Shown: in pieces, positions 6,001 through 43,141 of the stretch
How positions within the stretch are numbered: the first letter of the stretch is position 1
Layout: each line of letters begins with the position of its first letter
Source of the DNA: a virus
Virus record (IMG/VR): IMGVR_UViG_3300028840_006907
Coordinates: 224,001 to 288,000 of that record
DNA length: 64,000 bases
Strand: one strand, 5' to 3'
The notes under the pieces: model-generated
Databases searched by the model: none
The model's input: the letters and a program-made list of their open reading frames with translations, nothing else
What the model was told of the DNA's origin: nothing
Made by a program: the position numbers and the translations under genes

Positions 6001-9000
6001 AGGGCGTTTATAGAATCAGGTTTTTTAAGAGTCAGTGACGGTACTACAGCTTCTCCAATACCTTCATGGGGTGCTACTGGTGCCACAGGAAATACTGGGG
6101 CTACAGGATCCACAGGGGCTACAGGATCAGGGACTCAAGGAACAACAGGAGTTCAAGGATCTGCCGGGGCTACTGGAGCTACTGGACCGGCTGGAACTGG
6201 TTCTACAGGAGTCCAAGGTGTCCAGGGTGAAACCGGTATTCAGGGTCTCCAAGGTGATACGGGTGTTAGTTTAGGAGCAACAGGCTTGCAAGGTATCACA
6301 GGTCTCAGGGGATTCACGGGACTGCAGGGTCAAACCGGTGTTGCTGGGGAAACCGGAGTTCAGGGAGTGCAGGGACAAACCGGAGCTTTTGGTGGCCCTC
6401 CAGGAGAAACTGGCGTGCAAGGTGTCCAAGGAAACACTGGAGTACAAGGAACTACTGGAGTTCAAGGATCAACCGGAGTTCAAGGAATTCAAGGTCAGAC
6501 CGGAATTCAGGGAATCCAAGGAAATACTGGAGTACAAGGAATTCAAGGTAATACTGGAGTACAAGGTCAAACCGGAGTAAGTGGAGAAACTGGAGTACAA
6601 GGAACTACTGGAGTTCAGGGTATTCAAGGTCAAACTGGTATAGCAGGTCAGACAGGTATAGCAGGTCAAACCGGAGTTCAAGGAATCCAGGGAATTCAAG
6701 GTCAAACAGGTGCCCAGGGTTTAACAGGAGTAGCAGGTGAGACTGGAGTCCAAGGATCTCAGGGAAATACCGGAGTTCAAGGTATCCAAGGGCATACGGG
6801 AGCTGGGATACAAGGTACTACTGGTGTTCAAGGTTTACAAGGTCAGACTGGCTCTCAAGGTACTACTGGAATTCAGGGAGAAACTGGTGTAGGTATCCAA
6901 GGTCAGACGGGTGTTGCCGGTGTTGATGGCCAAACCGGAATTCAAGGAATCCAAGGAACCACAGGAGTTCAAGGTGAAACAGGAACTCAAGGAATTCAAG
7001 GAAATACCGGAATTCAAGGAACTCAAGGAAGCACAGGAGTTCAAGGAGAAACTGGAGTTGGTGCTCAAGGAACTACTGGAGTGCAAGGAATACAAGGAAA
7101 TACTGGAGTTCAGGGAACAACCGGAGTTCAGGGAATTCAAGGTCAAACCGGTGTTCAGGGAACACAAGGAGAAACAGGTTATATAGATTCTTCCAGTGTT
7201 AATCATAACGCTCTTCTTAATTTAACTGTTGGTGATGACCATACTCAGTATGCTTTTTTAGCTGGTCGTACTGGTGGGCAAACTATAAATGGTGGTGATG
7301 CTGCTTCAGACGTTTTAACTCTTCAAAGTACTACTGATACTACAAAAGGGAACATCATTCTTAATCCTATTAGTGGGGATGTCCCTGGTAAAGTTGGTAT
7401 AGGAGTAACATCTCCGATTTATCAATTACATGTTGGAGAGATTTTAGATGGCGGTACTGTAGGTATATGTATAAATAACCAGTATACTGCAAATGGATCA
7501 GTTGATGAAACTGCTAGTTTAATATATAGATTTGGTAGGCCACTCAGTCCTCAATATAGAGTAGCAGGTCAAGTATTAGTAGGTAAGGAACAGGATTGGT
7601 GGGATTATAATAGTACTGACGCTTATATGGCTTTTCATACTACTCGTGATACAATTTCACGTGAACAGATGAGAATTAATGCTCAAGGTTATGTTGGAAT
7701 AGGTACAACAAATCCCCAAGCTAAGCTTCATGTAACGACATTTGCTCAATTTGATGAAGGCTTTTCAACTAATATCGGTATAGGTGTTACCGCTCCTCAG
7801 GCACAGTTACATGTCGGAGAGAGTGTAACTGATGGAGATGTTTCAATAATTGTGAATAACTGGTCTTGGACTGGAGGGTCTGTAGATGAGACAGCTAGTT
7901 TACAATTCCGTTTTGGGCCTCCTCCAAGTAATTATTCTGCTGGTAAAATTTCTGCTCATAAAACTTTAGATTATATGAGTTTCGATAATAGAGACTCTTA
8001 TATGACTTTTAGTGTTGTAAATAATCAATCTGAAGTTGAGCGTATGAGGATTTTAAATGATGGAAAGGTAGGTATTGGTACAACTGATCCTCAAGAAAGA
8101 CTGCATGTAATTGATAGGGGTCAATTTGATATGGGGCTACAACAACCTATTGGTATAGGTGTAACGGCTCCATTAGCTGAATTACATGTTGGTAATAGTA
8201 CTAATGGTGGTGATGTAGGCATTATTATTAATAACCAATACAATACTACTGGATCAGTTGATGAAACAGCAAGTTTAATTTATAGATTCGGTACAGTAGG
8301 AAGTGCAAATTATCGAGTAGCTGCCAGAATTTGTGCTCATAAAGAATTAGACTGGCAATCTTTTGATAATGTCGATTCAGCTTTAGCTTTTAGGACTACT
8401 CGAAATCAATCTGAAAATGAAAGAATGAGAATAACTAGTGAAGGTGATGTAGGAATTGGTACTGTCACACCTTCAGAAAAATTACATGTAGAAGGTAATA
8501 TTTATACTACTAATGGTTTTCTTGCTGGTGGGAACATCCAAATTGAAGGGGACTTTTTAGGAGGGACTGATGGTAATTCTAATTTAGGCTCTACTTCAAG
8601 AAGATTTAATAACCTTTATATGGCTTCTTCGATAAATTATAATTCTGATCTAACCTTTGATTGTACGGGTACCCATGTAACCCTTACAACTGGTGGTAAC
8701 GTAGGTATAGGAACTACAAATCCCCAAGGATTATTTCATGTTTCTGATGATACCAATGGTGGTGATGTAGGTATTGTTGTTAGTAATCGCTATATTGGTG
8801 GTGGGTCAGTTGATGAAACAGCTAGTATGATTTATCGTTTTGGCCATCCGTTAGGAGTAGCTAATAAAGTTGCAGCCAGAATAAGTGCCCATAAAGAATT
8901 AGATTGGGCAAACTCTAATAATACTGATGCTGCTTTGATTTTCTGGACTACTCGTGATGCTGTTGAACGACAACAGATGAGAATTGATAGCAATGGTTAC

Positions 9001-13828: not shown

Positions 13829-14470
13829 TTATCTATCAAATTCTGAAATTTTCATATCTTTTAAAGTGATTATATAATTCTTTTTAACACCACTCTCAAT
13901 GAATTTGATTAATGACTCCGATGCTACTGCCACTGCCAGAAGTATAATATTCCTGGCCAATGGGTACTCGCATACATCAGGAGCTATCGTGTCTTTTGGG
14001 ACGGTATAAGATTCGTTCCATATTATTTCCGCGTAATCCTGAGACAGCCCGACATGTAAACAGCTCAAACCATTATCCTTACAATATTGATAAACTAATT
14101 TTCGGCTAATATTATTATCAAAAGAATCGATGATAATATTTGGTTTTTTCAAATATTTACTCACAGTAGTTTTATTAAGTTCTTTACTATTGGCATTCAA
14201 AACAGTTTTGGTTGAAGCATATGCTCTCATTTTCATAGTCGCTACTTTGTAGGTACCTTTTTCATTTTGGTTCCAGATCTGGGTACCATTATTGTGAGGT
14301 TCAATTCTGTCTTTATCGATAATTGTAATTTCTTTGAATCCCTGTCGAACTAAATTATCACAAAGATTTGACCCTATTGCTCCGACACCACAGAGTGTAA
14401 TTGGGGTTGTTGATAATTTACCAACTACTTCTTCAGATCGATACATTCTTTCATGTATTAATAAATCCAT
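13829..14470 (-). CDS. E1-like (ThiF/MoeB-family) adenylation-domain protein
   Basis: 213 aa. Rossmann motif ITLCGVGAIGSNLCDNLVRQGFKEITIIDKDRIEPHNNGTQ (GxGxxG followed by D-x-D...N...Q), then IIDSFDNNISRKL (the DN of ThiF-type folds). A Cys sits in DVCEYPLARN. The usual Arg of N-x-x-R-Q is Thr here. Confidence 0.75.
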   Translation of the reverse strand: MDLLIHERMYRSEEVVGKLSTTPITLCGVGAIGSNLCDNLVRQGFKEITIIDKDRIEPHNNGTQIWNQNEKGTYKVATMKMRAYASTKTVLNANSKELNKTTVSKYLKKPNIIIDSFDNNISRKLVYQYCKDNGLSCLHVGLSQDYAEIIWNESYTVPKDTIAPDVCEYPLARNIILLAVAVASESLIKFIESGVKKNYIITLKDMKISEFDR

Positions 14471-14474
14471 AATA

Positions 14475-14999
14475 TCATCCTATCCTAGCTATAATGCGAT
14501 CTTTTAACAAGACAAAGGGAATTTCAATACAACCTACAATCCGGTCTTTGTCTCTTTTATATAAATAAAATCTTTGTACTTCTGATTTGATTCCACATAA
14601 TAACGGTTTACCCAAAGCTTTGACCCAACCAGTCATAGTTTTATCATCTAAGGATGAAGGTTCCATTATATTACTTGGATGAGTATGATTAAAACCTACT
14701 ATTTTATTTCTGTCTCTGATTACTTTTTCCCAGTCAAAATCAACTGAACCAGGACCACCAGTGGATTCATAGATTAGTCTACCATAAATCCATTTGCAGT
14801 ATTTTTTACCATATATGATCCAACAATTTTCGTTAATTGTTTGTACTACTTCAATAGCTTCTATTGTTAATTTATTTTTATTGTAAATACCTTTATATGT
14901 TCGACCACATTCTGGGCATGGCATTCTTTGTGTTTCATTTTCTGTAATCCAGCATATATATTTTCCGCACTTACATGTAAATTCACTGCTTTCGGGCAT
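14475..14999 (-). CDS. zinc-ribbon + JAB/MPN+ (JAMM) metallopeptidase
   Basis: 174 aa. N-terminal CKCGKY...CPECGR. Exact JAMM signature GFNHTHPSNIMEPSSLD (H-x-H-x7-S-x2-D). Confidence 0.8.
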   Translation of the reverse strand: MPESSEFTCKCGKYICWITENETQRMPCPECGRTYKGIYNKNKLTIEAIEVVQTINENCWIIYGKKYCKWIYGRLIYESTGGPGSVDFDWEKVIRDRNKIVGFNHTHPSNIMEPSSLDDKTMTGWVKALGKPLLCGIKSEVQRFYLYKRDKDRIVGCIEIPFVLLKDRIIARIG

Positions 15000-15025
15000 A
15001 GGGATATATCCTTATTTTAGATTTT

Positions 15026-15925
15026 CTAATACAACGTTCTACTTATTTGATGAGTGCGTTGACCCTCTTTTATTACAGAAATTAATGCTTTTAAATCATA
15101 GTCTTTATCACCAACATGACCTGTTTCATGGTCGGTTAAACAGATGCCTGCAGTAATAACGTGGTGACTTTGATCTTTAGTAACAATAGTATTAAATTTC
15201 TCTCCATCGATTTCATATGTTACATAAATATGATCCGATTTTTCATCACTGCTCAGGTATTTACCTCCGGCAAATTCTATATCACGTTGAATCTTTGTTT
15301 TTTTCTTTTCTTCAAGTGCTCGTTCACGTTCTTCTTTGATTTTTAAATCGATTTTGTATTTTATGTTAAAAGCAATTTTCTCCTCCAATGTCAGACCAGA
15401 GAATTTTAATTTAGATGGGTCTCTGAATTCTTTCAGGGACTCATTAAGATAATCTGTAATCATCGGATCGGCTGACATATCCATTGAATCAAACCAGATA
15501 TTAGCTCCGTCAAATCGGCATAGACATTTAGAAAATGTTGTAACCATATCATCGAAAAGAAGAACTGGGTATAATTCTGATACTTTTAATCCCAGATGAT
15601 TACTCTTTATCGGGATCCCAAGATAAAAATCTTTCTTTTTATGTACTAAAACCATTCTTATCTTTGGTAAATATTTAAGATAAGATTGAATCTCATCTAT
15701 TTCCGCTAAATCTATTGCTTCAGCCCGTTTATTATCAAGTGCTTTGAATTTGTACCATCCCGGTTCTGTTTTCGGGATGTTTAAGTAATGAATAATTCCT
15801 TGAATACGGATAATGATTCGGTCATTATAATACACAGGAGAAATGATAGTCTTTTCAGTCATCATTTCTTCCTGTTTCCCTATTTTATCAATAAGGTTTA
15901 AAATATTATCTTTTCTTACGGTCAA
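15026..15925 (-). CDS. hypothetical protein with C-terminal E2/UBC-like active-site motif
   Basis: 299 aa. TTG start with GAGGAA 5 nt upstream, overlapping the upstream gene by 20 nt. The C-terminus YVTYEIDGEKFNTIVTKDQSHHVITAGICLTDHETG...LKALISVIKEG resembles the UBC motif HPN-x3-G-x-ICLD...SI-x-LL. The N-terminal ~220 aa has no recognised motif. Confidence 0.45.
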   Translation of the reverse strand: MTVRKDNILNLIDKIGKQEEMMTEKTIISPVYYNDRIIIRIQGIIHYLNIPKTEPGWYKFKALDNKRAEAIDLAEIDEIQSYLKYLPKIRMVLVHKKKDFYLGIPIKSNHLGLKVSELYPVLLFDDMVTTFSKCLCRFDGANIWFDSMDMSADPMITDYLNESLKEFRDPSKLKFSGLTLEEKIAFNIKYKIDLKIKEERERALEEKKKTKIQRDIEFAGGKYLSSDEKSDHIYVTYEIDGEKFNTIVTKDQSHHVITAGICLTDHETGHVGDKDYDLKALISVIKEGQRTHQISRTLY

Positions 15926-17462
15926 AAGATTTCCTCACGGGTAAAGGTGTATCCATGATCTCATATAGAAGATCGAGTTTTGATTTTCTGGATAGCAATG
16001 GAATTAATCCAGGCAATCCATAGTAATCGCTACCTTCAGGTTCATAGTAATCGAAAGGTATTCTAGCTTGTTTTAAATACATGCTGAATTCTTTACGACT
16101 CCATGAACTTGGAATGTAAATAATAGTAATAGTAGGAGTCACATTAAATTTTTTAACATAATTATCCCATATCTCAACGAAAAATGGATTATTATTTTCA
16201 CCTTCATCAGTGACCACTATTATCTGTTCTACATAATAGTTTTTTCTAATAAGGTAATCTAATGCTATACCTATGGAAGTCCCACCATTACTTTTTACAG
16301 GTCTGAAAGCCCTTTCCCAGGCAGACATATTCGGTTCATTAGCTGTGATCTCTCTGGCCATTGTATCAAAAGTAATAGCATAGAGAGGAGCTTCTGTAGC
16401 ACCTGAAATAAGAGCCGCAACATTTTTTCCGACTTCGATGGCTTGAGTCATAGAACCTGATTTATCGATAAAGACTGCAGTAGGTACTTTTATAACACCT
16501 TTCTTTTTAATTTGCTGATCTGCAATTTCATCGAGGATCTTTTGAGATTCCTCATTTTTGATCCGACCTGTTTTCTTTGCTTCTTTGGATTTTAAAGCTG
16601 ATACATTTTTAGCTTTTTTAGCTTTTTCCAATTTAGCCGTAATCAATGTTTTTGTATCCTCATTGTCCATGGCACCACGTTCTTCTAGGGAAGCATAGTT
16701 ATTAATAACTTCCTGTGGAGACATAGCATTGATTAGAGCAATCAGAATTGTAGGAGTGATTTGATCAACCAAACCTACAGCCACCGTATAAGGTACTTTA
16801 TGTTCTATAATCAGCTTTGCCACTTCAGTCGGATTATCAGCTTGTGCTATTTTTTCGAAAACATTTAATTTACTGTCCGTAGGACGTTCATTTCCGAAAA
16901 GAATCTTCTGAGCACGTTCACTAGGTGCTATACGAAGAGTAGCATATAATCCTTTAAGATCTTTTGGACTTTTTAGGGCAATAGCATCAAAAAGATCGTT
17001 GTTGGTTTCAATATATTGAAGAAATTTCTCAACATCCCTTTTAAAGGCAGTAGGAATATTTTTGTAAAGACCTACATTTTTTTCTTCAATTTTTACTTCA
17101 TCGATCATTTTTTTCTTCATTTTTATTTTTTTGCCCGTTTTATTTCTGATCTTTATTTTTTTACCTTTAATAAAACCGACCACACGTCTTTTAAGATATA
17201 CAGGTATTTCCCTGAAGAGGGCTAGCCCAACTTCACGGTTGTCAAGAAATTCATCAACAATAAGTGAACCGATGAATACTTCTTTATGATCCCGAATATC
17301 TCCATTCTTGTAGTACCAGCTTCCAAGGTGGGCATAAAACAGCGGATCTGCTTTTTGTAATTCAAGATGGGTATTTTTTAATTTATCTAGGTCCCGGTGA
17401 GGGCAACTCAGAAATGAGTTAAGCATGTTAACTCTGATATCATTTTCGTTAGCTTGGTTCAT
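15906..17462 (-). CDS. Ro60/TROVE-like protein with C-terminal vWA (MIDAS) domain
   Basis: 518 aa with AAGGAGG upstream. The C-terminal ~190 aa parallels the Ro60 vWA block by block: VFIDKSGSM (DxSxS), AITFDT, NGGTSIGIAL, QIIVVTDEGEN. The N-terminal ~330 aa is helical with ADPLFYAHLGSWYYKNGDIRDHKEVFIGSLIV, similar to the TROVE N-terminal signature. Contains a Lys-rich insert (GKKIKIRNKTGKKIKMKKK). Confidence 0.6.
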   Translation of the reverse strand: MNQANENDIRVNMLNSFLSCPHRDLDKLKNTHLELQKADPLFYAHLGSWYYKNGDIRDHKEVFIGSLIVDEFLDNREVGLALFREIPVYLKRRVVGFIKGKKIKIRNKTGKKIKMKKKMIDEVKIEEKNVGLYKNIPTAFKRDVEKFLQYIETNNDLFDAIALKSPKDLKGLYATLRIAPSERAQKILFGNERPTDSKLNVFEKIAQADNPTEVAKLIIEHKVPYTVAVGLVDQITPTILIALINAMSPQEVINNYASLEERGAMDNEDTKTLITAKLEKAKKAKNVSALKSKEAKKTGRIKNEESQKILDEIADQQIKKKGVIKVPTAVFIDKSGSMTQAIEVGKNVAALISGATEAPLYAITFDTMAREITANEPNMSAWERAFRPVKSNGGTSIGIALDYLIRKNYYVEQIIVVTDEGENNNPFFVEIWDNYVKKFNVTPTITIIYIPSSWSRKEFSMYLKQARIPFDYYEPEGSDYYGLPGLIPLLSRKSKLDLLYEIMDTPLPVRKSFDRKKR

Positions 17463-17483
17463 AATATCTCATCCTCCTTATGT

Positions 17484-17750
17484 TCAGGTTTCAATTTTTC
17501 CGAAAGTAGCATTTGGTCTAACTGTAATGTTACCATTTTTATGGTGTTCAACAACTAATTCAGCAAATTCTGATGCTGGTCTATCATAATGATCTACTAA
17601 AGCCAATTTAATTTGTTCACCAGTTATATTATCCGATGTGATCTCGGTTCCTGGTTCAATCCCGAGTTGTTCCCATCTGTCTTCTGGGAAAAGATCTTTG
17701 AGATTAATATCTTCAGTTTGACCATCATACATTATATGGACTTCACTCAT
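17484..17750 (-). CDS. small acidic protein, candidate ubiquitin-like (beta-grasp) modifier
   Basis: Start revised to the ATG at 17750, with GGAGG 5 nt upstream; the 109-aa version in the track lacks an RBS. 88 aa: MSEVHIMYDGQTEDINL...ITVRPNATFGKIET. First gene of the E2/JAB/E1 operon, with a Gly 4 residues from the C-terminus. Confidence 0.6.
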   Translation of the reverse strand: MSEVHIMYDGQTEDINLKDLFPEDRWEQLGIEPGTEITSDNITGEQIKLALVDHYDRPASEFAELVVEHHKNGNITVRPNATFGKIET

Positions 17751-17790
17751 ATGAGCCTCCTTGTAATAAGTTAAAAAAAGAGTCCCGTAT

Positions 17791-17807
17791 ATTATACGAC
17801 ACGAGAT
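17791..17807 (-). promoter_or_regulatory. conserved promoter motif, family 1 (CTYCRTGTCGTATAAT)
   Basis: The minus strand reads ATCTCGTGTCGTATAAT, about 40 nt upstream of the 17750 start. The same TGTCGTATAAT core recurs at 18956-18972 and 61807-61823 on the plus strand. Confidence 0.6.
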
Positions 17808-17888
17808 TAACATTTCATTAAGTAAAAAATTGGGTAGAATATAAATTCTTGTGTGTCATCATGGTAAATAACTTTTTTAAAAAAATTA

Positions 17889-17917
17889 TTGACACACTTA
17901 AAATTTATGGTTATATT
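17889..17917 (+). promoter_or_regulatory. sigma70-type promoter of the RNA operon
   Basis: TTGACA (17889-17894), a 17-nt spacer, then TATATT (17912-17917). The predicted start near 17924 coincides with the first base of the RNA1 closing helix. Confidence 0.7.
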
Positions 17918-17923
17918 ATTGAC

Positions 17924-18063
17924 AGTTCTGCACTCTAACTTTTGATGCTTACATAGAGAAAATAGCTCAGTTGGTCAGAGCGCGAGATTTAGGTTCTTGA
18001 AGTCTTCGGTTCAATTCCGAATTTTCTTACCATAAAATTAGCACCTTCAACTTGTGCAGAACT
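17924..18063 (+). ncRNA. structured RNA unit 1: shared closing module enclosing a complete tRNA
   Basis: Perfect 10-bp terminal helix AGTTCTGCAC (17924-33) / GTGCAGAACT (18054-63). Family module just inside it: 5' TCTAACTTTTGATGCTTACA and 3' GCACCTTCAACTT. The cargo is the tRNA at 17956-18032. Confidence 0.6.
17956..18032 (+). tRNA. tRNA, anticodon UAG (Leu by the standard table), class-I shape, CCA encoded
   Basis: Hand-folded cloverleaf. Acceptor GAGAAAA/TTTTCTT (G1-U72). D-arm GCTC-AGTTGGTCA-GAGC. Anticodon arm CGAGA-TTTAGGT-TCTTG (U33, anticodon TAG at 17990-92, G37). 5-nt variable loop AAGTC. T-arm TTCGG-TTCAATT-CCGAA, A73, then CCA. Confidence 0.85.
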
Positions 18064-18081
18064 ACTTAAACCAAGAAATAA

Positions 18082-18199
18082 AAGTCAGACATTCTAATTA
18101 TTAGGGCGTACATGGCGTTAAAACCATGCTTCCTGCAGAAATCAGGAAGCAATCTCTGGGCCAAGGCTCAGGGGCGCACTGATGACTTATGTCTGACTT
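18082..18199 (+). ncRNA. structured RNA unit 2: shared closing module enclosing three hairpins
   Basis: 11-bp terminal helix AAGTCAGACAT / ATGTCTGACTT. Module 5' TCTAATTATTAGGGCGTACA and 3' GCGCACTGATGACTT. Interior hairpins: CATGG-cgttaaaa-CCATG, CTTCCTG-cagaaat-CAGGAAG, and CTGGG-ccaagg-CTCAG. Confidence 0.55.
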
Positions 18200-18248
18200 A
18201 ATATAGATTGTAAAGTGTTGTAAAATAAATTTGATCTTTGAAAATTAT

Positions 18249-18430
18249 AGGATAATGCCTTCTAACCTGTTGGGCTTACAAATTTTACTGGTTCGACTCC
18301 AGGTTCCGCCTCTCGGTCCTTTTGTAAAGATTGTAAAGGATCAGGAGGCGGAACAAGCCGGGTGGTCTGGCGATTGAATGCAAATCAATTTATTTGAAAT
18401 TAACGCTCTTTTAACTTGGGCATTTATCCT
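18249..18430 (+). ncRNA. structured RNA unit 3: closing module + circularly permuted tRNA-like core (Y-RNA/YrlA-like)
   Basis: Terminal helix AGGATAATGCC / GGGCATTTATCCT (one bulge), followed by TTTTTT. Order inside: T-arm CTGG-TTCGACT-CCAG (18288-302); a 20-bp closed acceptor-like hairpin (18303-354); AA; D-arm GCC-GGGTGGTCT-GGC; and hairpin ATTGA-ATGCAAA-TCAAT. Confidence 0.6.
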
Positions 18431-18477
18431 TTTTTATAGTAATTTATAATTTTATATAAAGTGATCTTTGAAAATAT

Positions 18478-18660
18478 GAGGTAAGTGCCTCCTAACATAA
18501 CGGGCTTACAAATTAATAGGGTTCAACTCCCTGTTCCCCCGCCTAAGTCTTTGTCATATAATGATTAAGATTTGGGCGGGGGAACGAGCTGGGTGGTTCA
18601 GCAATCAACGTTTAATTGATGAAAAACATTTTTACGCTCTTTTAACTTAGGCACTTACTC
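18478..18660 (+). ncRNA. structured RNA unit 4: closing module + circularly permuted tRNA-like core
   Basis: Terminal helix GAGGTAAGTGCC / GGCACTTACTC, followed by TTTTT. T-arm AGGG-TTCAACT-CCCT. Closed acceptor-like hairpin GTTCCCCCGCC...GGCGGGGGAAC. D-arm GCTG-GGTGGTT-CAGC. Hairpin ATCAA-CGTTTAA-TTGAT. Confidence 0.6.
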
Positions 18661-18681
18661 TTTTTATTAAATTGAAATTAC

Positions 18682-18858
18682 AAGGAGCACCTTCTAACCT
18701 GTTGGGCTTACAAGTTATTCGGGGTTCAAATCCCTGTCCCGGCACTAGGTTGATTCCCTAAAAGTCAACCCAGTGCCGGGATAGCCAAATTGGTAAAGGC
18801 GACTATATTGAACATAGTAAACAAAACTATCTACGCTCTTTTAACTTGGGTGCTCTTT
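18682..18858 (+). ncRNA. structured RNA unit 5: closing module + near-perfect circularly permuted tRNA
   Basis: Terminal helix AAGGAGCACC / GGTGCTCTTT. T-arm CGGGG-TTCAAAT-CCCTG (18720-36). Acceptor 3' strand TCCCGGC + A73, a linker hairpin, then acceptor 5' strand GCCGGGA (18775-81). U8 A9, D-arm GCCA-AATTGGTAA-AGGC, and anticodon arm ACTAT-ATTGAAC-ATAGT (UGA at 18809-11). Confidence 0.6.
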
Positions 18859-18899
18859 ATATATTTCTCGCAAAAGGAATACAGGGTGAAACAGGAGTA

Positions 18900-18940
18900 T
18901 AGGGATTAAGAAGAAATTTTTGATCCCTATTTTATTTTTT
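18900..18940 (+). terminator. intrinsic terminator closing the RNA operon
   Basis: Stem TAGGGAT (18900-06) / ATCCCTA (18923-29), then TTTTATTTTTT. The loop is rather large (16 nt). Confidence 0.5.
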
Positions 18941-18955
18941 CCCGGATTTTCCCTA

Positions 18956-18972
18956 CCTTCATGTCGTATAAT
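18956..18972 (+). promoter_or_regulatory. conserved promoter motif, family 1
   Basis: CCTTCATGTCGTATAAT, 44 nt upstream of the 19016 start. 16 of 17 positions match the copy at 61807-61823. Confidence 0.6.
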
Positions 18973-19015
18973 TATTAGATAAAGATTTTCTAAACATTTT
19001 ATTAGGTAATTAATT

Positions 19016-21643
19016 ATGACATGTAAAATTTGTAAGAGTAATCTTTCTTATACTTTTGATAAATTTCCAGCTTATAAGTTCTGTCCTTGTTGTAACCTTT
19101 ATTTTCAAGAAGAATTTCCACCAAAGATATTTGAAGGTCCTGATGAGAATAACGGGCATGGTCCCGGTACAGGTCATTTAATGTCTGAGGATGAAAAGGA
19201 AATAAATAAAAATTTCGCTAATGTTCTCTATGATATGTTTATTCCTCGAACTCTTCTAGATATAGGTTGTAAATACCCCTATTTTATTAGTGTGTTAAAA
19301 GATAAAATAGATGTATTAGGAATTGATCCTATTTCAGAGATCTTGAAATATGGAGAAGAATTGGGTGTCTCTGTAATTCGTGATGATTTTGAAGATATGA
19401 ATATTACTCCTTTAAAAAATAAATTCGATTTAATAACTTTGATACATACTTTCGAACATTTTTATAGCCCAATAGAGACCATGAAAAAGATAATCGAATG
19501 TCTTACTCATAGAGGAGTGCTTTTAATAAGAATTCCAAACATAGATATTGAAGGTATAGAAAGAGATTTTACTGATCATCATGTTCAAATCCATCCCTTT
19601 ATATATTCAACACAAGCAATGTATCGAATCGCTCAAAAATTTGATTGTGAAATTTTTAGGGTCGATGATATTATTGGATATGGCCAGAGCGATTTTTATT
19701 TAAGGAAGAAAAGGGACCATCTTTCTTTATCGGTTTGTATGATTGTAAAAGATGAGGAAAAGAATGTTTCTGATTGTTTGGAGAGTATAAAAGATGTAGC
19801 TGATGAAATCATAGTTGTGGATACCGGATCTATAGATAATACCAAAGAAATAGTATCCAAATATACAACAAAGATATATGACTTTAAATGGATTGATGAC
19901 TTTTCTGCTGCTAGAAATCACTCTTTAAGTAAGGCAACGGGTGACTTTATTTTATGGCTTGATGCTGATGATATTGTAGAAAATCCAGAAAAGATTAATG
20001 AAATATTAAAAAATGATGATGCTAAGATATTTAATTTTAATATTAAATATGGAAATGATGTCTTTAGTCAGGCTAGACTATTTAGGAATTTTTATAATAT
20101 AAAATTTTCTGGTAGAGTTCATGAATATCCTGTAATCGATAATTTATATATAAAAGATACTGAAGTTAATGTAATTCATAAAACCGAAAAACATTCAACA
20201 GAAAACCGTTCTGATAGAAATCTCCGTCTCCTTAAAAAAGAATACGAAGATAATCCGAACAATTCCCGGACACTTTTTTACCTGGCAAGTGCTTATAAAG
20301 AACTTACTCGTTGGGATGAAGCTATAGATTTTTATCGAAAATATTTAACTATTTCTATCTGGAAAGATGAGAGATGGATGGCTCAAAAGAATATTGGATG
20401 TATTCTTTCCTGGAATAGAAAATATGAAGAAGCCATTGAAGAATTGAAGAAGGCTATTGAAATAGATGATCGATGGGCTGAGTCATATTATTATATAGCT
20501 GAGTGTTATTTCTATTTAAAAAACCCTCAAGAATGTATAAACTGGTCTTTAAAAGCTATTGAGAAAAAGATGCCCGAATCACCTCTTTGGAAAGAGATCC
20601 CAATTTATAATGACGCACCATACCGTTATCTCTTTGCTTCTTATGGTTCTTTAGGTGATTTTGAGAAAGCATTGCATTATTGTAAGATAGCATCAGAAAA
20701 AGTTCCTGAGGATGAATGGCTTAAGGAAAGAGTCACTTATTTTGAGAATGCTACAAAAGGAGTTCCTGTTGTAGTCGAATGTAATCGGTGGGGGGCTTTG
20801 GGTGATTGTTTAATGACAACTGCATCTTTACGTGCCATTAAGCATAAGATTCCGGGTTGTTTTATAAGATATGTCACCCATCCTAGTATGTTCCCGATCC
20901 TTGAAGGGAATAAGTTTATAGATGAACTTGTATCAGAATCTAAATCTGAGAACTCAGAAAAGGTTTATTTCTCATATCCTGACAGTAAATCTCCTATTAA
21001 AGATGAAGGTTATCCTAATAAGCCTTTGAATCGCCATTTAGTACGTATATTCGCAGAATGTGCTGGTTTAAAAGAATTTGATAATCTAAAGATGGAGTGT
21101 ACTCTTACAAAAGATGAGGAGAAATCAGGTCAGTCATTGAGATCTCGATTTAAGAAATATGTGACTCTTCATATCCATTCGGGTTGGTCTGAGTATAAGG
21201 ATTGGTATAATGATCGTTGGGAGACTGTTGTAGATGAGTTATTTAAAAGAGGTTACGTGGTTGTTCAGCTAGGCCATAAAGATGAGGGTCTCTTAGTTGG
21301 TACTGTGGATTATAGAGGCCATACTATAAAAGAAGCTATCTCTGCAATAAAATATGCTGATATTCATTTAGGAGTGGATTCATTTACAAACCATGCCTCG
21401 GCTACTGTGGGGACTCCTGCAGTTATTTTATTTGGGTCTACTTCTCCAACCGGTTCCGGGTATGATCAGAATATAAACCTTTATAAAGATTTGAAATGTC
21501 AGCCTTGTTATAAAGAATATGCATGGTCTAAGGATAATAAAGGAAAATGTCCTTATAATAAACTATGTATGGATCAGATCCTGGTTCAGGAAGTATTAGA
21601 CGGTTTTATGAGATTAGAAAAAAAATTATTTATTGATGGATAA
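19016..21643 (+). CDS. multidomain glycan-modifying enzyme (Zn-ribbon, SAM-methyltransferase-like, GT2, TPR, GT9/heptosyltransferase-like)
   Basis: 875 aa. CKICKS...CPCCN. Methyltransferase motif I-like LLDIGCKYPYF. GT2 motifs LSVCMIVKDEEKNV...IIVVDTGSIDNT and WLDADD. TPR-like LFYLASAYKELTRWDEAIDFYRKYL. GT9-like NRWGALGDCLMTTASLRAIKHKIPG and GVDSFTNHAS. Confidence 0.75.
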   Translation: MTCKICKSNLSYTFDKFPAYKFCPCCNLYFQEEFPPKIFEGPDENNGHGPGTGHLMSEDEKEINKNFANVLYDMFIPRTLLDIGCKYPYFISVLKDKIDVLGIDPISEILKYGEELGVSVIRDDFEDMNITPLKNKFDLITLIHTFEHFYSPIETMKKIIECLTHRGVLLIRIPNIDIEGIERDFTDHHVQIHPFIYSTQAMYRIAQKFDCEIFRVDDIIGYGQSDFYLRKKRDHLSLSVCMIVKDEEKNVSDCLESIKDVADEIIVVDTGSIDNTKEIVSKYTTKIYDFKWIDDFSAARNHSLSKATGDFILWLDADDIVENPEKINEILKNDDAKIFNFNIKYGNDVFSQARLFRNFYNIKFSGRVHEYPVIDNLYIKDTEVNVIHKTEKHSTENRSDRNLRLLKKEYEDNPNNSRTLFYLASAYKELTRWDEAIDFYRKYLTISIWKDERWMAQKNIGCILSWNRKYEEAIEELKKAIEIDDRWAESYYYIAECYFYLKNPQECINWSLKAIEKKMPESPLWKEIPIYNDAPYRYLFASYGSLGDFEKALHYCKIASEKVPEDEWLKERVTYFENATKGVPVVVECNRWGALGDCLMTTASLRAIKHKIPGCFIRYVTHPSMFPILEGNKFIDELVSESKSENSEKVYFSYPDSKSPIKDEGYPNKPLNRHLVRIFAECAGLKEFDNLKMECTLTKDEEKSGQSLRSRFKKYVTLHIHSGWSEYKDWYNDRWETVVDELFKRGYVVVQLGHKDEGLLVGTVDYRGHTIKEAISAIKYADIHLGVDSFTNHASATVGTPAVILFGSTSPTGSGYDQNINLYKDLKCQPCYKEYAWSKDNKGKCPYNKLCMDQILVQEVLDGFMRLEKKLFIDG

Positions 21644-22250: not shown

Positions 22251-25200
22251 ATGGCCAAGACAAAAAGGAAATGGATTGAGCTGGATTGGTACAATCCCAA
22301 TGCCTTACGTGCACAAGACATACCTTACGATCAAACCGAAAGTGTAAAAGATGCTATAGATAGAGCTGCCTCTGGAGTTCTCGGTCCGACGGGGACCACG
22401 GGTTCGACCGGTTCAACAGGTTCGACGGGTCCAACGGGTCCGACGGGAGCCACGGGTGCGACGGGAGCAGGAATCCAGGGTGAAACCGGAGTCGCTGGAG
22501 TTCAAGGAGCTACCGGAACCGGTGGTGGTGGAGATACTGGTGTCCAGGGTGAGACCGGTTTACCCGGAGCCACAGGAATCCAAGGTACAACCGGTATCCA
22601 GGGAACTACAGGAATCCAAGGTGAAACTGGAATCCAGGGACATACAGGTACAGTTGGAACAACGGGTGTTCAAGGAGAAACCGGTTCTCAGGGTACTACT
22701 GGAATCCAGGGAGAAACTGGAGTAAAAGGTGAAACTGGTATTCAAGGTCAAACCGGTATAGCTGGTGGAGCAGGATTTCCAGGAGCAACTGGAGTCCAGG
22801 GCGAAACCGGAGTCCAAGGAACTACTGGGGTTCAAGGGGAAACCGGGGTTCAAGGAACCACAGGAGTAGCCGGAGCAACCGGAGTCCAGGGAACTACTGG
22901 CGTCCAGGGAACTACTGGCATCCAAGGTGAAACGGGTGTCCAGGGAGATACTGGAGTTGGTGCCACTGGAATCCAAGGAACCACAGGTATCCAGGGTCAA
23001 ACCGGTGTTCAAGGTATCACCGGAGCTTATGGTGGTCCTCCTGGAGAAACTGGTGTCAAGGGAGAAACCGGAGTACAGGGGGCTACTGGAATCCAAGGTC
23101 TTCAAGGATTGCAGGGAACCAAAGGTGAGACCGGAACACAAGGTATTCAAGGCCAGACCGGAGTTCAGGGAGAAACTGGAGTTCAAGGGCAGACTGGTAC
23201 AGGTGCTCCAGGAGCCACTGGAGTTCAAGGGCAGACTGGTATCCAGGGAACCACTGGAATAGGTTTAGGTTCAACAGGAGTAGCGGGAGCAACTGGAATT
23301 CAAGGTACTACCGGAGTTCAAGGTAGGACTGGAGTCCAAGGATTTACCGGAGCTGCTGGTTTAGGTGAAACTGGTATCCAAGGAGCTACCGGAGTCCAGG
23401 GTGCCACAGGTATTCAAGGGACTACTGGTGCAGGAATCCAAGGAGCCACAGGTATTAGTGGTGACACGGGAGTTCAAGGAGCCACAGGAATTAGAGGTAC
23501 TACTGGTGCAGGAATCCAAGGAGCCACGGGGGTTCAGGGCATTCAAGGTCAAACTGGAGCCCAGGGCGAAACCGGAGTCCAGGGTGAAACCGGAATAGAA
23601 GGTTCTCAATTTGCAGGATTTAATTATAAAGCAAAAACAGACAATCAATCTGATACAGATCCTGGTATAGGAAATTTAAAGTGGAGTGCTGTAGCTCAAG
23701 TCACATCTAGTGAGCTTTATGTGGATGATGCTGACGTTAATTCTACGGATCTCAGTAATTTTTACCTCACTTTAAAAGCTGCCGACTCTTTACGTATTGT
23801 TCGTATGGAAGATCCTTCTCAGTATCAGATTTTTAATATAACAAACGTTACTGATAGAACCGGATGGTTCCGTTTATCTGTTACACCTGTTGTTTCAGGT
23901 GGTTCGACTTTTAGTTTAAATGATAATATCATACTGATATTTAGTATATCAGGTCCTAGAGGTCAGACCGGAGTAAAAGGTGAGACTGGAATTCAAGGAA
24001 CTACAGGTGTTGCCGGAGCCACAGGAGTCCAAGGTCAAACTGGAATTCAGGGTCAAACTGGAATCCAGGGCATACAGGGCCAGACTGGAATTCAAGGACA
24101 AACTGGTATTCAAGGTCAAACAGGAATCCAAGGTCAGACAGGTGTTGGCGCTCAGGGTGCTACTGGTGTAGCTGGTCAAACCGGGGTCCAGGGAGAAACT
24201 GGGATACAAGGTCAGACTGGTGCAGGAATCCAGGGAACTACTGGTGTTCAAGGCGTTCAAGGATTAACAGGTGTGCAAGGCCAGACAGGTGCCGGAATCC
24301 AAGGTGAAACCGGAGTCCAGGGTACTCAAGGTTTAACCGGTATACAGGGTCAGACAGGTGCTGGAATCCAAGGAGAGACTGGTGTTCAGGGAAACACTGG
24401 GGCTTTTGGTGGTCCTCCCGGAGAAACTGGTGTTCAGGGAGAAACTGGTGCACAAGGTTTAACTGGAGTCCAAGGTCAAACCGGAGCAGGTATTCAGGGA
24501 GCCACTGGTATTCAAGGAGTTACTGGAGTTCAAGGCCAAACCGGTGCTGGTATTCAAGGAGTCACTGGAATCCAAGGACAAACTGGTATACAGGGTCAGA
24601 CAGGAGTAGCAGGTCAGACCGGAGTCCAAGGAATACAAGGCCAGACAGGAGTAGCAGGTCAGACCGGAGTTCAAGGAATTCAAGGACAAACCGGAATAGC
24701 AGGTCAGACCGGAGTTCAGGGTATACAAGGTCAAACTGGAATTCAAGGGCAGACTGGTGCTGGAATCCAAGGTACAACTGGAGTAGCCGGAGCTACAGGA
24801 GTTCAGGGAATTCAAGGTCAAACAGGAGCTGGAATCCAAGGTACAACTGGAGTCCAGGGAACTACAGGAGTTCAAGGTGAAACTGGTACTGGTATTCAGG
24901 GAGAAACTGGTACGCAAGGTATTCAGGGTCAAACCGGAATTCAGGGACAGACTGGGATTCAAGGTAATACTGGTGTAAAAGGTGAAACCGGAGTTCAGGG
25001 TTTTCCAGGTCCTCAGGGTACGAAAGGTGATACTGGTGCTCAAGGTATTCAAGGTGAGACAGGAACTCAAGGAATTCAGGGCCAAACTGGAGTAGCTGGA
25101 GAAACTGGAGTTCAGGGTCAAACGGGTACTCAAGGAATTCAGGGTCAGACTGGTGTAGCTGGTGCAACTGGTGCGGGAATTCAAGGTCAAACTGGTGTTC

Positions 25201-28200
25201 AAGGAATCCAAGGTCAGACTGGAATCCAGGGGCAAACTGGAGTCCAGGGTGAAACAGGTATAGAAGGATCTTTATGGGCTGGATTTAGTTATAATGCCAA
25301 GACTGATGATCAGTCAGATACAGATCCTGGTACAGGGAATCTTAAATGGAGTACTGTTGCTCAGGTAAATGCGGGTGAACTTTATGTAGATGATACTGAT
25401 CAATATTCCATAGATTTAAGTAATTTTTATCTTACGTTAAAGGCTGGTGATTCTCTTCGAATAATTCGTCAGGAAGACCCTTCTCAATATCAAATTTATA
25501 ATATAACAAATGTTACAGATAGAACAGGTTGGTTCCGTCTTAGTGTGACCTATGTTACTTCAGGTGGATCTACTTTCAGTCTTAATGATAATATTATTCT
25601 TGTTTTTGTTAAAGCTGGAATTCAAGGTCAGACAGGTGCCCAAGGTATTCAAGGTCAAACAGGAGTCCAAGGAATTCAAGGACAGACTGGAGTTCAAGGA
25701 GCCACAGGTACCCAAGGAATTCAGGGGCCACAAGGCCAGATAGGTCTTCAAGGTACTACTGGGGTCCAAGGTGAAACCGGAGTCCAGGGCACACAAGGTC
25801 AGACGGGTATCCAGGGTACAACAGGTGCCGGGATTCAGGGTCAAACCGGAGTCCAGGGAATTCAGGGTCAAACCGGTATTCAAGGTCAAACAGGAGCAGG
25901 TATTCAGGGAGCTACTGGTATTGCTGGTATAGATGGTCAGACTGGAATCCAGGGTGAAACCGGAATTCAGGGCCAAACTGGAGCTGGTATTCAGGGAGCT
26001 ACTGGTATTGCTGGTATAGATGGTCAGACTGGAATCCAGGGTGAAACCGGAATTCAGGGCCAAACTGGAGCTGGAATCCAAGGTGAAACCGGTATCCAAG
26101 GAATTCAAGGATTAACAGGTATTCAAGGTACAACTGGTGCTGGCATTCAGGGAGAAACTGGAGTACAGGGTACACAAGGTCAAACAGGTGTTCAAGGTCA
26201 AACAGGTGCCGGAATTCAGGGTGAAACCGGAGTCCAGGGCACACAAGGTCAAACCGGTATTCAGGGTCAAACTGGCGCTGGTATCCAAGGTGTGACAGGA
26301 ATTCAAGGAATACAAGGACAAACTGGTATCCAGGGTCAAACGGGTGCCGGAATCCAAGGAGAAACCGGAGTCCAGGGAGAAACAGGAATACAAGGTCAGA
26401 CTGGTGCAGGAATCCAGGGAACTACTGGTGTTCAAGGCGTCCAAGGATTAACAGGTGTCCAGGGTCAAACTGGTGCTGGTATTCAAGGTGAAACCGGAGT
26501 CCAGGGTACTCAAGGTTTAACTGGTATACAGGGTCAGACAGGTGCTGGCATTCAGGGAGAAACCGGGGTCCAGGGAGAAACTGGAATACAAGGTCAGACT
26601 GGTGCAGGGATTCAGGGTGTGACAGGAATTCAAGGTCAAACTGGAGTTCAGGGAACTACAGGAATCCAGGGTCAAACAGGTGTTGGGATCCAGGGTGTGA
26701 CTGGAGTTCAAGGAATTCAAGGTCAAACCGGTATTCAAGGTCAAACCGGTATTCAAGGTGAAACCGGAGTGTCTGGAGCTACAGGTATTCAGGGAATTCA
26801 AGGTCAAACCGGAATCCAGGGTCAGACCGGAGTCCAAGGAGAAACAGGTGTACAAGGTTCTACAGGTGTATTAGGTGATCCTAATTGGATAGATTTTGTA
26901 CCTCAAGCATCTGCTCCTAGTCATCAGGAAGCTCGCCTTTTTTATGATTCAACAGACCATTCATTGAGTTATTACAATGAAGAATCTGATGTTACCCTGA
27001 ATTTAGGTCGTGAATTATATATCAGAGTGTATAATGCAACAGTTTCAACAATAACTAACGGTCAAGTAGTTTATGTCACAGGTGTTGCTGCAGGATACCC
27101 CACAATAGATTTAGCAGATGGTAGTGATTTAACTAAGACTAATAATATAGGAGTGGCTACTCATAATATAGAAGCCTCAACATTTGGTTATATCACATTA
27201 TTTGGATTAGTAAGAGATATTAATACTAATGCTTTCAGTGCTGGTGATGAAGTTTGGTTAAGTGAAAGTACTCCAGGTGGTTACCAGTCTTTTGCAGGTA
27301 CATATGCCGTTAAAATAGGTTATGTTGTTGTTTCAGATACATTAAATGGTTCAATAATGGTAGCTATGGGTGATACGGAAGCTACTATAGCTGGATTGAA
27401 TGATGTAAATCTTACTAGTATCTCTGATGGTCAGTATTTACAATGGGACTCGGATTCTACTAAATGGGTTAATGTTTCTGAAAGTCCTCAAGGTGATACA
27501 GGTATCCAAGGAGCAACTGGAGTTCAAGGAATTCAAGGAACTACAGGAGTTCAAGGAGCAACTGGAGTTCAAGGTATTCAAGGAACCACAGGAATTCAAG
27601 GACAGACCGGAGTTCAGGGTGAAACCGGAATTCAAGGAACTACAGGAGTCCAGGGAGAAACTGGTACTGCAGGAATAGACGGTCAGACAGGAGTTCAGGG
27701 TGAAACCGGTATTGCAGGAATAGATGGTCAGACAGGAGTTCAAGGTACTACCGGAGTTCAGGGAATTCAAGGAACTACAGGAATTCAGGGAGAAACCGGT
27801 ACTGCAGGAATAGACGGTCAGACAGGAGTTCAAGGTGAAACTGGAACTGCAGGAATAGACGGTCAGACAGGAGTTCAAGGTACTACCGGAGTTCAAGGAA
27901 CCACTGGAATTCAAGGTACTACCGGAATTCAGGGAACTACTGGAATTCAGGGAGAAACCGGTACTGCAGGAATAGACGGTCAGACAGGAGTCCAAGGTAC
28001 TACTGGGATTCAGGGGGAAACCGGAGTCCAAGGTACCACAGGGATTCAGGGAGAAACCGGAGTCCAAGGTACTACTGGAATTCAGGGAGAAACTGGTGTT
28101 TTTGGGATTGTCAATTATATCGATTATGAACCTCAAGATACAGTTCCTTCTCATTTAGAAGGTCGTACCTTTTATGACAGTACAGATCATTCTTTAAGTT

Positions 28201-34878: not shown

Positions 34879-34881
34879 TAA

Positions 34882-42782: not shown

Positions 42783-43141
42783 TAACTGAAATTGATGATG
42801 ATAGTAAAGACATAAAGATAAAATTAGGAAATTTATTTGAAAAATATGAAAATCTTTATCGGGAAGGGAATAGACAGTTTAGAACAGAGAGAATAGCTTC
42901 TGCTGGGTCAATGGATGGTCTGGAAGAATTTCGTCGTTTGATGCTTATTGTAAAAAGAAATAAGGATGTAGTGGCCTCGCTAATGCGGGGTATAGCTAAT
43001 TTTAGGTCTATTTCAAATTTTAAGTTTGTAGAAGAGGAAGTAGAAATTTCAAAACCGAAACCAAAGAAAACAAAGAAAGCTACTCCTGAAAAAGTGATCA
43101 TACCTATACCAATAGTAGCGGAGGAATTTAATGGCGAATAA
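42761..43141 (+). CDS. hypothetical protein
   Basis: 126-aa ORF overlapping the portal start by 11 nt. Has a Lys-rich C-terminal segment. Confidence 0.6.
   Translation: MPDFNKLITEIDDDSKDIKIKLGNLFEKYENLYREGNRQFRTERIASAGSMDGLEEFRRLMLIVKRNKDVVASLMRGIANFRSISNFKFVEEEVEISKPKPKKTKKATPEKVIIPIPIVAEEFNGE

Follow-up and report, generated by a model that had tools for sequence, protein, structure and literature searches.

A complete tRNA as putative Y RNA cargo, with a rapidly changing anticodon arm, beside a divergent Ro60 operon of a huge phage

The DNA analysed here (the window) is a stretch of 64,000 nucleotides from the viral record IMGVR_UViG_3300028840_006907 (positions 224,001 to 288,000), part of a contig of 469,617 bp. 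According to ARAGORN it contains exactly one tRNA, at 17956-18032 (+ strand), with the anticodon tag at tRNA position 35. Sequence comparison identifies this tRNA as the cargo domain of the first of five predicted Y RNAs, which lie beside an operon with a Ro60 gene. In related loci purifying selection acts on the RNA module around the tRNA and on the acceptor, D and T arms; the anticodon arm, by contrast, is replaced quickly, and its architecture is preserved. We propose, with middling confidence, that the tRNA is tethered to Ro60 and that its exchangeable anticodon arm serves as a specificity element, probably in conflict with host factors that target tRNAs.

By every sequence and structure test applied, the element at 17956-18032 is a tRNA. 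It is complete and of class I, has a length of 77 nt, encodes its CCA at 18030-18032 and carries A73 as discriminator. Rfam scores it at 65.9 bits against the tRNA family RF00005 (E 4.3e-12, gathering score 29, full model 1-71). The acceptor stem, read from the sequence, has 7 bp (G1.U72 and six Watson-Crick pairs), and the conserved nucleotides U8, A14, G18G19, A21, G53-T54-T55-C56, A58 and C61 as well as the G15-C48 Levitt pair are in place. The T arm is TTCGG-TTCAATT-CCGAA and the variable loop has 5 nt (AAGTC). The anticodon arm (17983-17999, + strand) reads CGAGA-TTTAGGT-TCTTG with the anticodon TAG at 17990-17992, U33 and G37; it is the hypervariable element of the family described below. 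The register of this loop is standard, so that the different register considered in the initial annotation does not apply, and ARAGORN, Rfam and direct reading agree with the textbook cloverleaf, class-I body, encoded CCA and UAG anticodon which that annotation had described. The isolated tRNA is predicted to fold close to the cloverleaf (minimum free energy, MFE, -16.9 kcal/mol versus -16.1 kcal/mol for the cloverleaf itself), and in an RNAalifold analysis of a MAFFT alignment of 37 family units 20 of the 23 cloverleaf pairs showed compensatory changes. A tRNA on the minus strand, whose anticodon would be CUA, was rejected since T loop, D loop and CCA are correct on the plus strand only. An assembly artefact as the source of the UAG anticodon was rejected as well: over 9,462 nt the sequence agrees fully (100% identity) with that of an independent contig of 389 kb obtained from a different sample.

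The tRNA is flanked by a leader of 32 nt (17924-17955) and a trailer of 31 nt (18033-18063), which are predicted to pair into a stem. The outermost part of this stem is a closing helix formed by AGTTCTGCAC (17924-17933, + strand) and its perfect 10-bp complement GTGCAGAACT (18054-18063, + strand). In the orthologous locus L093 (loci are designated by L numbers throughout) the helix is kept with a compensatory change, GCAC/GTGC being replaced by GCGC/GCGC. The motif TCTAAC (17934-17939, + strand) follows on the 5' side of an internal loop; its family consensus, T-C-T-A-A, is derived from 66 tRNA units and 108 units without a tRNA. The segment 17940-17955 (+ strand) comprises the 5' strand of an inner helix, the sequence GCTTACA (17947-17953) and a TA linker, directly before tRNA position 1, and it is a candidate Ro60 contact. 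The trailer proper (18033-18053, + strand) begins with the A-rich linker TAAAATT, single-stranded and directly 3' of the CCA, and continues with AGCA (18040-18043, the 3' strand of the inner helix), CCTTC and AACTT (18049-18053). The whole architecture proposed for the tRNA unit has a calculated energy of -30.9 kcal/mol, compared with -33.5 kcal/mol for the unconstrained MFE structure.

The order of elements in this module is closing helix, TCTAAC-like motif, about 7 nt, GCNTACA, cargo, (A)GC, about 6 nt, RACTY and closing helix. The four neighbouring units of the window share this order, as the initial annotation had noticed when it placed the tRNA inside a stem common to non-tRNA units. In the aligned units TACA is invariant (37/37), as is the A-C-T of the 3' motif. 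The trailer contains a base that covaries with the N of GCN (T-A 72, A-T 29, G-C 28); N is paired in 77% of cases versus 39% with permuted partners. The register of the inner helix was chosen for maximal pairing, and RNAalifold, which agrees with it, gave the same covariation independently on the 37-unit alignment (U-A 17, A-U 8, G-C 7). The module around the window tRNA is conserved in the orthologues L092, L093, L012 and L105-L107; the annotation had named conservation in relatives among the points on which its proposal would stand or fall.

To delimit the family, about 105 loci were gathered around homologues of the 518-aa protein encoded next to the array. Most of them are contigs of huge phages of up to 582 kb and a few are cellular genomes. 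The module was found upstream of the Ro60 gene throughout. A stringent detector reported 235 units (174 unique) in the real sequences versus 12-19 in shuffled sequences, and the units derived from shuffling nearly all had helices of 8-10 bp. Closing helices in the family range from 8 to 30 bp and are unrelated in sequence; because the detector selects for them, their covariation is partly circular. A full tRNA recognisable by ARAGORN was present in 66 of the 174 unique units, and in 56 of these 66 caged tRNAs the first nucleotide lies at -1 to +3 nt after GCNTACA. All 66 are of class I (72-78 nt), whatever their anticodon. There is also a sub-type that lacks its own acceptor stem and CCA (L001 4444-4572, L026 1396-1522, L006 4532-4655 and L042). 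These units keep D, anticodon and T arms and carry the inner helix (GCTTACA/…TTAGC) at the position of the acceptor, and ARAGORN still calls them tRNAs.

What makes the five units of the window a predicted Y-RNA array is the fold of the adjoining 518-aa protein (15906-17462, - strand). Neither Pfam (including TROVE, PF05731) nor NCBIfam nor PDB gave a sequence match to this protein, and a partial PHROGs match to 'HNH' was spurious; vWA families of Pfam are recorded on its homologues. Its AlphaFold2 (AF2) model, with a pLDDT of 83.6, consists of a ring of helical repeats and a C-terminal vWA domain with a MIDAS-like DKSGSM motif. When the model was compared with PDB using Foldseek, the top 13 matches were all Ro60/TROVE proteins, matched over the full length with probability 1.00, E values from 5e-11 to 5e-8 and template modelling (TM) scores of 0.5-0.62. 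They included Ro60 from Xenopus, human, Deinococcus and the Thermus phage phiLo; matches to vWA domains alone were far behind. By its predicted fold the protein is thus a divergent Ro60 orthologue. As a rule, Y RNAs are encoded beside the gene of their Ro60, and phages are no exception (PMC4201824; PMC12135203).

A second line of evidence comes from a cellular member of the family. The unit of Dictyobacter alpinus Uno16 (L097, 3562-3951) matches the Rfam family YrlA (RF02553) with 46.2 bits (E 3.9e-9), whereas the gathering score is 69. On the strength of this match, although it is below threshold, the module is the stem of a divergent family of YrlA-class Y RNAs. Together with the Ro60-like fold this bears out the term 'Y-type RNA' used in the initial annotation. 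The Dictyobacter unit also includes an anticodon-like arm, CGGA-CTTCTAA-TCCG. Besides the L097 chromosome the Ro60 clade occurs in a second cellular genome, a metagenome-assembled genome of Chloroflexia (L104, 780-kb contig), at 37-42% identity. Module, 299-aa protein and ThiF are present in both, and their cargo is permuted, without a full tRNA.

YrlA RNAs resemble the unit of the window in several respects (RF02553; PMC4201824; 10.1101/312249). They lie next to Ro60 genes, often several per locus, their 5' and 3' ends pair, and their distal domain is derived from a tRNA with canonical T and D arms. The permuted order typical of YrlA (T arm, capped acceptor, D arm) recurs in units 3-5 of the window and in the Dictyobacter unit. 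The published YrlA RNAs, however, are permuted, with a closed acceptor and with neither anticodon loop nor CCA, whereas the tRNA unit of the window is unpermuted and has an open acceptor, an anticodon arm and a genomic CCA. Moreover, the stem joins the tRNA at its acceptor end rather than at the anticodon stem as in YrlA, the motifs are GCNUACA and UCUAAC/RACUY instead of GNCGAAN0-1G, and the anticodon arms of the caged family are hypervariable. The tRNA unit is therefore filed in the class of YrlA-type Y RNAs by context and stem architecture and not as a member of RF02553, since it lacks both the Ro60-binding motif and the permuted design without anticodon and does not match the covariance model.

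It might be thought surprising that a class-I tRNA should carry the anticodon UAG, which reads leucine codons. The long variable arm of class II tRNA-Leu is missing from the window tRNA, and in the related phage L081 the free tRNAs Leu(tag) and Ser(tga) are class II molecules of 84 and 86 nt. The initial annotation had stressed this mismatch. It is real, but it does not point to one odd tRNA-Leu: the puzzle dissolves because a class-I body is common to all caged tRNAs, regardless of the anticodon they carry. Among the 66, 9 have a Leu anticodon (tag, taa, caa, aag) and 3 the Ser anticodon tga (ARAGORN calls, checked by eye in key cases), and the closest orthologues of the window tRNA combine TCG (L093), ACG (L012, L106, L107) or a 6-nt loop (L092) with the closing helix, module, acceptor stem and D and T arms seen in the window. 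As far as these comparisons go, UAG is thus one of the states that the variable arm takes on an otherwise generic class-I tRNA. It does not mark a bona fide tRNA-Leu, and apart from the anticodon no test applied classes the molecule as one.

A genuine but unconventional tRNA-Leu, of class I and charged with leucine or another amino acid, which reads CUA and CUG, would be the most literal explanation of the sequence. The discriminator A73 suits it, G18G19 and the G15-C48 pair are intact, and the UAG state is the same in two independent samples. Nor does E. coli LeuRS strictly require a long variable arm. We nevertheless consider this explanation highly improbable. The nearest orthologues combine the same body and Arg-type anticodons with A73 (L012) or G73 (L093), and the one with the 6-nt loop has U73 (L092). 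Furthermore, A73 is found in only 3 of the 7 CCA-ended caged tRNAs with Leu anticodons, so that the agreement of A73 with leucine identity, to which the annotation had drawn attention, is coincidental. The annotated phage tRNAs nearest to the window body are tRNA-Pro (about 80% over 57-59 nt) and tRNA-Met, not tRNA-Leu. A check of codon usage, which the annotation had suggested, showed for 33 open reading frames (ORFs) of the window that CUA and CUG are the rarest leucine codons (6% and 5% of Leu). There was no sign of recoding: a role in stop-codon recoding or suppression was rejected because the ORFs are long under the standard code (stops TAA 24, TGA 5, TAG 4) and the tRNA carries UAG instead of CUA as its anticodon.

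To quantify the turnover of the anticodon arm, 21 pairs of orthologues with an identity of 88% or more in the tRNA body were compared. The divergence per site was 0.30 in the anticodon loop and 0.17-0.19 in the anticodon stem versus 0.06 in the rest of the tRNA, 0.075 in the leader and 0.105 in the trailer. The loop diverges about five times faster than the tRNA body, and the anticodon differs in 16 of the 21 pairs. The clearest case is that of L016 and L017, which come from sister metagenomes. Their 5,891 aligned nucleotides differ by 8 substitutions, all of which fall at 3456-3474, the anticodon arm, and change the anticodon from ATC to TCT with compensatory changes in the stem; the other 5,872 nt contain 0 substitutions. 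Neutral drift of the anticodon was rejected on this ground, 8 substitutions in 19 nt being far above the neutral rate. Because the difference is confined to the arm, a co-varying partner within that locus (about 3 kb) is excluded. No donor copy for the swapped arm, as expected for gene conversion within the locus, was found in the flanking sequence examined; the change may reflect either cassette exchange or selection. Other pairs provide further examples. L001 and L026 have GCA versus CTT on one body, L004 and L005 have ATT versus TAA, and of the 19 positions at which L062 and L063 differ over 6,147 nt, one is anticodon position 36 (AAT versus AAC).

Despite this turnover the loops retain their architecture. 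Among the 55 caged tRNAs with 7-nt loops, Y32 is kept in 54, U33 in 46 and R37 in 54, and G36 is always followed by G37 (12/12). Position 34 is abnormal, with A34 in 14/55 and G34 in only 5/55, and 11 of the 66 caged tRNAs (about 17%) have loops of 6 or 8 nt. A34 stands in two-codon boxes in the further caged anticodons AUU, AUC, AUG, AAU and AAC. Particular arms recur in distant places: L017 and the remote L042 both have exactly ATTGA-TTTCTAA-TCAAT, and the loop TTTAGGT of the window is found again in L021 and in a permuted unit with closed acceptor in L014 (2477-2663, - strand). The closed acceptor means that the L014 unit cannot be charged. Strict anticodon-like hairpins are present in 13 of 55 permuted units, where 2.1 would be expected; of the 10 triplets they display, 9 also occur in caged tRNAs.

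These data bear on the idea that the tRNA is a structural module and nothing else. The full tRNA would then act like the elbow of YrlA (T and D arms), recruiting a generic effector or stabilising the Y RNA, and the functionless anticodon arm would drift. T arm, D arm and module are indeed the conserved parts, the published model of YrlA proposes recognition of the elbow (10.1101/312249), and the excess of A34 and the irregular loops would fit relaxed constraint in an AT-rich genome. However, drift does not account for the L016/L017 pair, and the compensatory stem changes and the retained loop architecture imply that selection preserves the arm as an anticodon arm. The identical arm of L017 and L042 and the occurrence of UUUAGGU in L014, L021 and the window also speak against the idea. 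We consider a purely structural role very unlikely.

A more serious alternative, though still a rather unlikely one, is that the unit is the scaffolded precursor of a working decoder tRNA. Stem and Ro60 would protect the tRNA or time or quality-control its maturation, and RNase P and 3' trimming would release it. Charging would be set mainly by the anticodon, and the product would supplement or replace host tRNAs, for instance those depleted by nucleases, with anticodon switching tracking the needs of each lineage. In addition to the textbook cloverleaf with all nucleotides for tertiary interactions, CCA is encoded in 41 of the 66 caged tRNAs versus 8 of 29 free ones, an A-rich single-stranded linker follows the CCA, and the 7-bp acceptor would make the unit a substrate for RNase P, like YrlA of M. 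smegmatis. The loop architecture is kept, A34 variants would read the NNU codons which dominate the AT-rich genome (AAT 88%, GAT 85%, CAT 90%), and phage tRNAs whose altered anticodon loops evade anticodon nucleases have been documented (PMC10264068; PMC11464382).

Several observations argue against decoding, however. The codons cognate to UAG are the rarest for leucine. The anticodon plays no part in tRNA recognition by bacterial LeuRS and SerRS, yet the caged Leu and Ser anticodons are found on generic class-I bodies with no consistent A73. Roughly 17% of the caged tRNAs have irregular loops and some units have no acceptor stem, the same arms, UUUAGGU included, occur on permuted units which cannot be charged, and ordinary free tRNAs coexist uncaged in related genomes. 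Because arms are found on unchargeable scaffolds, loops are irregular, acceptors may be missing, identity does not track the anticodon and the cognate codons are rare, decoding is probably not the main job of the caged tRNA. Among the alternatives raised in the initial annotation 'decoy' fits best, since the identical UUUAGGU loop also occurs on the closed-acceptor scaffold; 'regulated precursor' is less probable.

In the tethering model that we favour, Ro60 would bind the stem and hold the tRNA domain as a module for binding an effector, as proposed for YrlA (10.1101/312249). The anticodon arm would determine which anticodon-reading factor is engaged. The likeliest targets would be host defence nucleases directed against tRNAs or enzymes that modify anticodons, and, tethered in this way, the unit may serve as bait, decoy or sensor. 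At G1 a cut by RNase P is possible, by analogy with M. smegmatis YrlA, which is cleaved by this enzyme, acquires CCA and remains bound to Rsr (PMC4201824). The duplex of leader and trailer and the encoded CCA would keep the tRNA attached to the ribonucleoprotein (RNP) after such a cut. An encoded CCA is an anti-determinant for RNase Z. With the M. smegmatis precedent a mixed outcome is plausible, in which the RNA is cut by RNase P and is still held by the leader-trailer duplex and Ro60. If the phages were in an arms race with factors of their hosts that read anticodons, rapid diversification of the arm at the level of strains would be the expected result; defences that target tRNAs, and phage tRNAs as counter-measures to them, are well documented.

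A number of points weigh against this model. The published Ro60-binding motif, GNCGAAN0-1G or CGAA, is absent, and the metazoan motif GGUCCGA is not present on the 5' strand either. The Ro60 assignment depends on similarity of predicted folds, with sequence identities of 11-15% and a TM score of about 0.6. No tRNA-targeting nuclease was identified, and RtcB lies near the cassette in only 1 of 61 loci. The frequently encoded CCA, the 7-bp acceptor and the canonical loop features are exactly those of a released decoding tRNA and keep the decoder model alive. The UAG state is stable in the two independent samples of the window phage, variability being found between lineages and not within this one. 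Finally, the sequences are all metagenomic.

The five units of the array look like one transcription unit. A sigma-70-type promoter, TTGACA-17 nt-TATATT with 11 of 12 consensus matches, lies at 17889-17917 (+ strand), and transcription is predicted to start near 17923-17926, where the closing helix of the tRNA unit begins. A hairpin followed by a T run (18899-18930, + strand) resembles an intrinsic terminator and closes the array. Unit 2 (18082-18199, + strand; TCTAAT…GCGTACA / GCGCAC…GACTT) has a cargo of three hairpins without a T arm and a predicted MFE of -52.2 kcal/mol (z = -6.8). One hairpin has an 8-bp stem and the 7-nt loop CAGAAAT, and CTGATGA lies within the 3' strand; in the orthologue of this unit in L092 the stems are conserved and the loops are not.

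Units 3-5 are permuted tRNA-like RNAs. Unit 3 (18249-18429, + strand) contains T arm, capped acceptor hairpin, D arm and the hairpin ATTGA-ATGCAAA-TCAAT and is 73% identical to its orthologue in L092. It was recognised by eye and by this alignment, the detector having missed it owing to a bulge in the closing helix. Unit 4 (18478-18661, + strand) ends in the hairpin ATCAA-CGTTTAA-TTGAT, in place of which the L092 orthologue carries ATAGA-CTATTAA-TCTAT, and the terminal hairpin of unit 5 (18679-18861, + strand) is ACTAT-ATTGAAC-ATAGT. The terminal anticodon-like hairpins of all three units (5 bp with 7-nt loops: ATGCAAA, CGTTTAA, ATTGAAC) vary between orthologues. The sequence CTTTGA was found at most 35 nt upstream of 57 of 172 units versus about 2% expected, often about 8-15 nt upstream; in the window it occurs at 18224-18229 and 18456-18461, and further examples are in L003, L007, L008, L011 and L069. 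The motif may serve single units as a promoter element, or it may be a signal for processing within the array. A nucleotide search with the array against 50,697 phage records gave no match. In Rfam, at the gathering cut-off and at E up to 10 over 17700-19000, the tRNA was the sole real match and neither YrlA nor Y_RNA was reported; weak matches to miRNA, snoRNA and plastid families were dismissed as chance matches to hairpins.

Five genes are transcribed divergently from the array. The first encodes a small protein of 88 aa (17484-17750, - strand), which is always located between the RNA array and the Ro60 gene. Members of this family have about 80-90 aa (86-90 aa as called in L092, L093 and L105) and a conserved C-terminus, …GN(I/V)TVRPxxxFG followed by 0-5 residues. 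It resembles that of a ubiquitin-like protein (Ubl) processed to a C-terminal Gly, and the small protein is probably ubiquitin-like. Downstream of the Ro60 gene lies the gene of a conserved partner protein of 299 aa (15026-15925, - strand), for which a confident model was obtained; it may contain tandem OB/S1-like RNA-binding domains, the matches to OB/S1/CSD-like folds being weak (TM 0.15-0.27). The remaining two genes encode a JAB/MPN-type peptidase (14475-14999, - strand; Pfam Prok-JAB with E 1.6e-4, below cut-off, PADLOC JAB models and synteny) and a ThiF/E1-like adenylyltransferase (13829-14470, - strand; Pfam ThiF with 83.3 bits, PADLOC E1-E2 models).

This gene order (13829-17750, - strand, in the window) is repeated in L004, L008, L012-L016, L092, L093, L105 and others. 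Among the 61 loci with at least 2.5 kb of downstream sequence, the 299-aa protein was present in 52, JAB in 38 and ThiF in 36. PADLOC reported no known defence system beyond the generic E1 and JAB models, and no published description of a Ro60-Ubl-E1-JAB linkage was found. RtcB as a core partner in an RNA-repair model was considered and dropped: it is absent from the window, and the single case near a cassette is an RNA ligase gene in the close relative L093 (8396-9560), about 1.6 kb downstream.

If the cassette acts together with the array, the latter might form a programmable 'anticodon display'. The Ro60 RNP would present tRNA and mimic modules with arms exchanged as cassettes, and each would capture or sense one anticodon-reading host factor, such as an anticodon nuclease of a defence system or a modification enzyme. 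Ubl, E1, JAB and the 299-aa protein would then act on the captured factor, for example by tagging or neutralising it, and the unpermuted units would be living intermediates between tRNA and Y RNA. We put this forward as a speculation that is improbable in its full form.

Directly downstream of the array, at 19016-21643 (+ strand), an 875-aa fusion protein is encoded which combines a methyltransferase, a family-2 glycosyltransferase, TPR repeats and a family-9 glycosyltransferase; it is syntenic in L092, L093 and L105. Two giant collagen-repeat proteins of 2,247 and 3,078 aa (3310-10053 and 22251-31487, + strand) have Gly-X-Y tracts broken by globular domains, and the second is followed by several Laminin_G_3/concanavalin-like proteins (31499-37173). 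All of these are probably fibre or appendage proteins of the huge phage. An ORF of 1,117 aa (43131-46484, + strand) contains an intein splicing domain and a LAGLIDADG homing endonuclease.

Among known phage systems, the Thermus phage phiLo likewise has a Ro60 gene with Y RNAs, Yrl1 and Yrl2, directly upstream (PMC12135203), but these use the CGAA motif and have no tRNA cargo. In phage Bas63 the Ro60-like gene gp130, which is reported to counter the defence system Ppl, lies beside annotated tRNAs, and the authors speculated that some of these are Y RNAs (PhageMaP preprint, PMC11482910); the idea was put forward there without an examination at the sequence level. In contrast to both, the clade of the window is very divergent, has no TROVE match in Pfam and is linked to the Ubl-E1-JAB cassette. 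It was found in just 1 of 50,697 deposited phage records. Phage tRNAs that evade defence (PMC10264068; PARIS, PMC11464382; retron evasion, PMC11555353) share with the caged tRNAs an anticodon-loop sequence that is adaptive against host anticodon nucleases, and conflict with such nucleases would explain why change is confined to the anticodon arm. Those tRNAs, however, are free, chargeable and appropriate to their isotype, whereas the window tRNA sits in a predicted Ro60-binding stem and its identity does not follow the anticodon. tmRNA and the tRNA-like structures at viral 3' ends also consist of a functional RNA module and, fused to it, a tRNA-shaped domain that is recognised by enzymes of tRNA metabolism such as the CCA-adding enzyme and RNase P, but they have a free CCA 3' end and no true anticodon arm, in place of the internal CCA and canonical anticodon arm found here.

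No published account of a full, unpermuted tRNA joined to a Y stem was found, although reviews may contain an earlier mention. The 2014 survey of Y RNAs discarded candidates for which there was an overlap with annotated tandem tRNA genes (PMC4201824). 'tRNA' calls with odd anticodons beside phage Ro60 genes (A34, class-I Leu or Ser, suppressor-like UCA) should not be taken as decoding capacity or as evidence of recoding. Caged tRNAs with a UCA anticodon, labelled 'SeC' by ARAGORN, occur in L008/L010 (5215-5291) and L042; at face value they would be UGA suppressors or evidence for code-4 recoding.

The conservation of Ro60 and Y RNAs extends from bacteria to humans, and we know of no effector that has been established for the tRNA-like domain of bacterial YrlA. 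The diversification of nothing but the anticodon arm in a cargo that is otherwise a complete tRNA points to anticodon-reading factors as partners. The unpermuted units are candidate intermediates between tRNAs and Y RNAs, in line with the proposed origin of Y RNAs from tRNA transcripts. From the loci there also emerges a Ro60-Ubl-E1-JAB cassette that is conserved in huge phages and in some bacteria, the cultured Dictyobacter among them, and the finding as a whole connects the conflict between phages and their hosts over tRNAs, a field of much current work, with the biology of Ro60 and Y RNAs.

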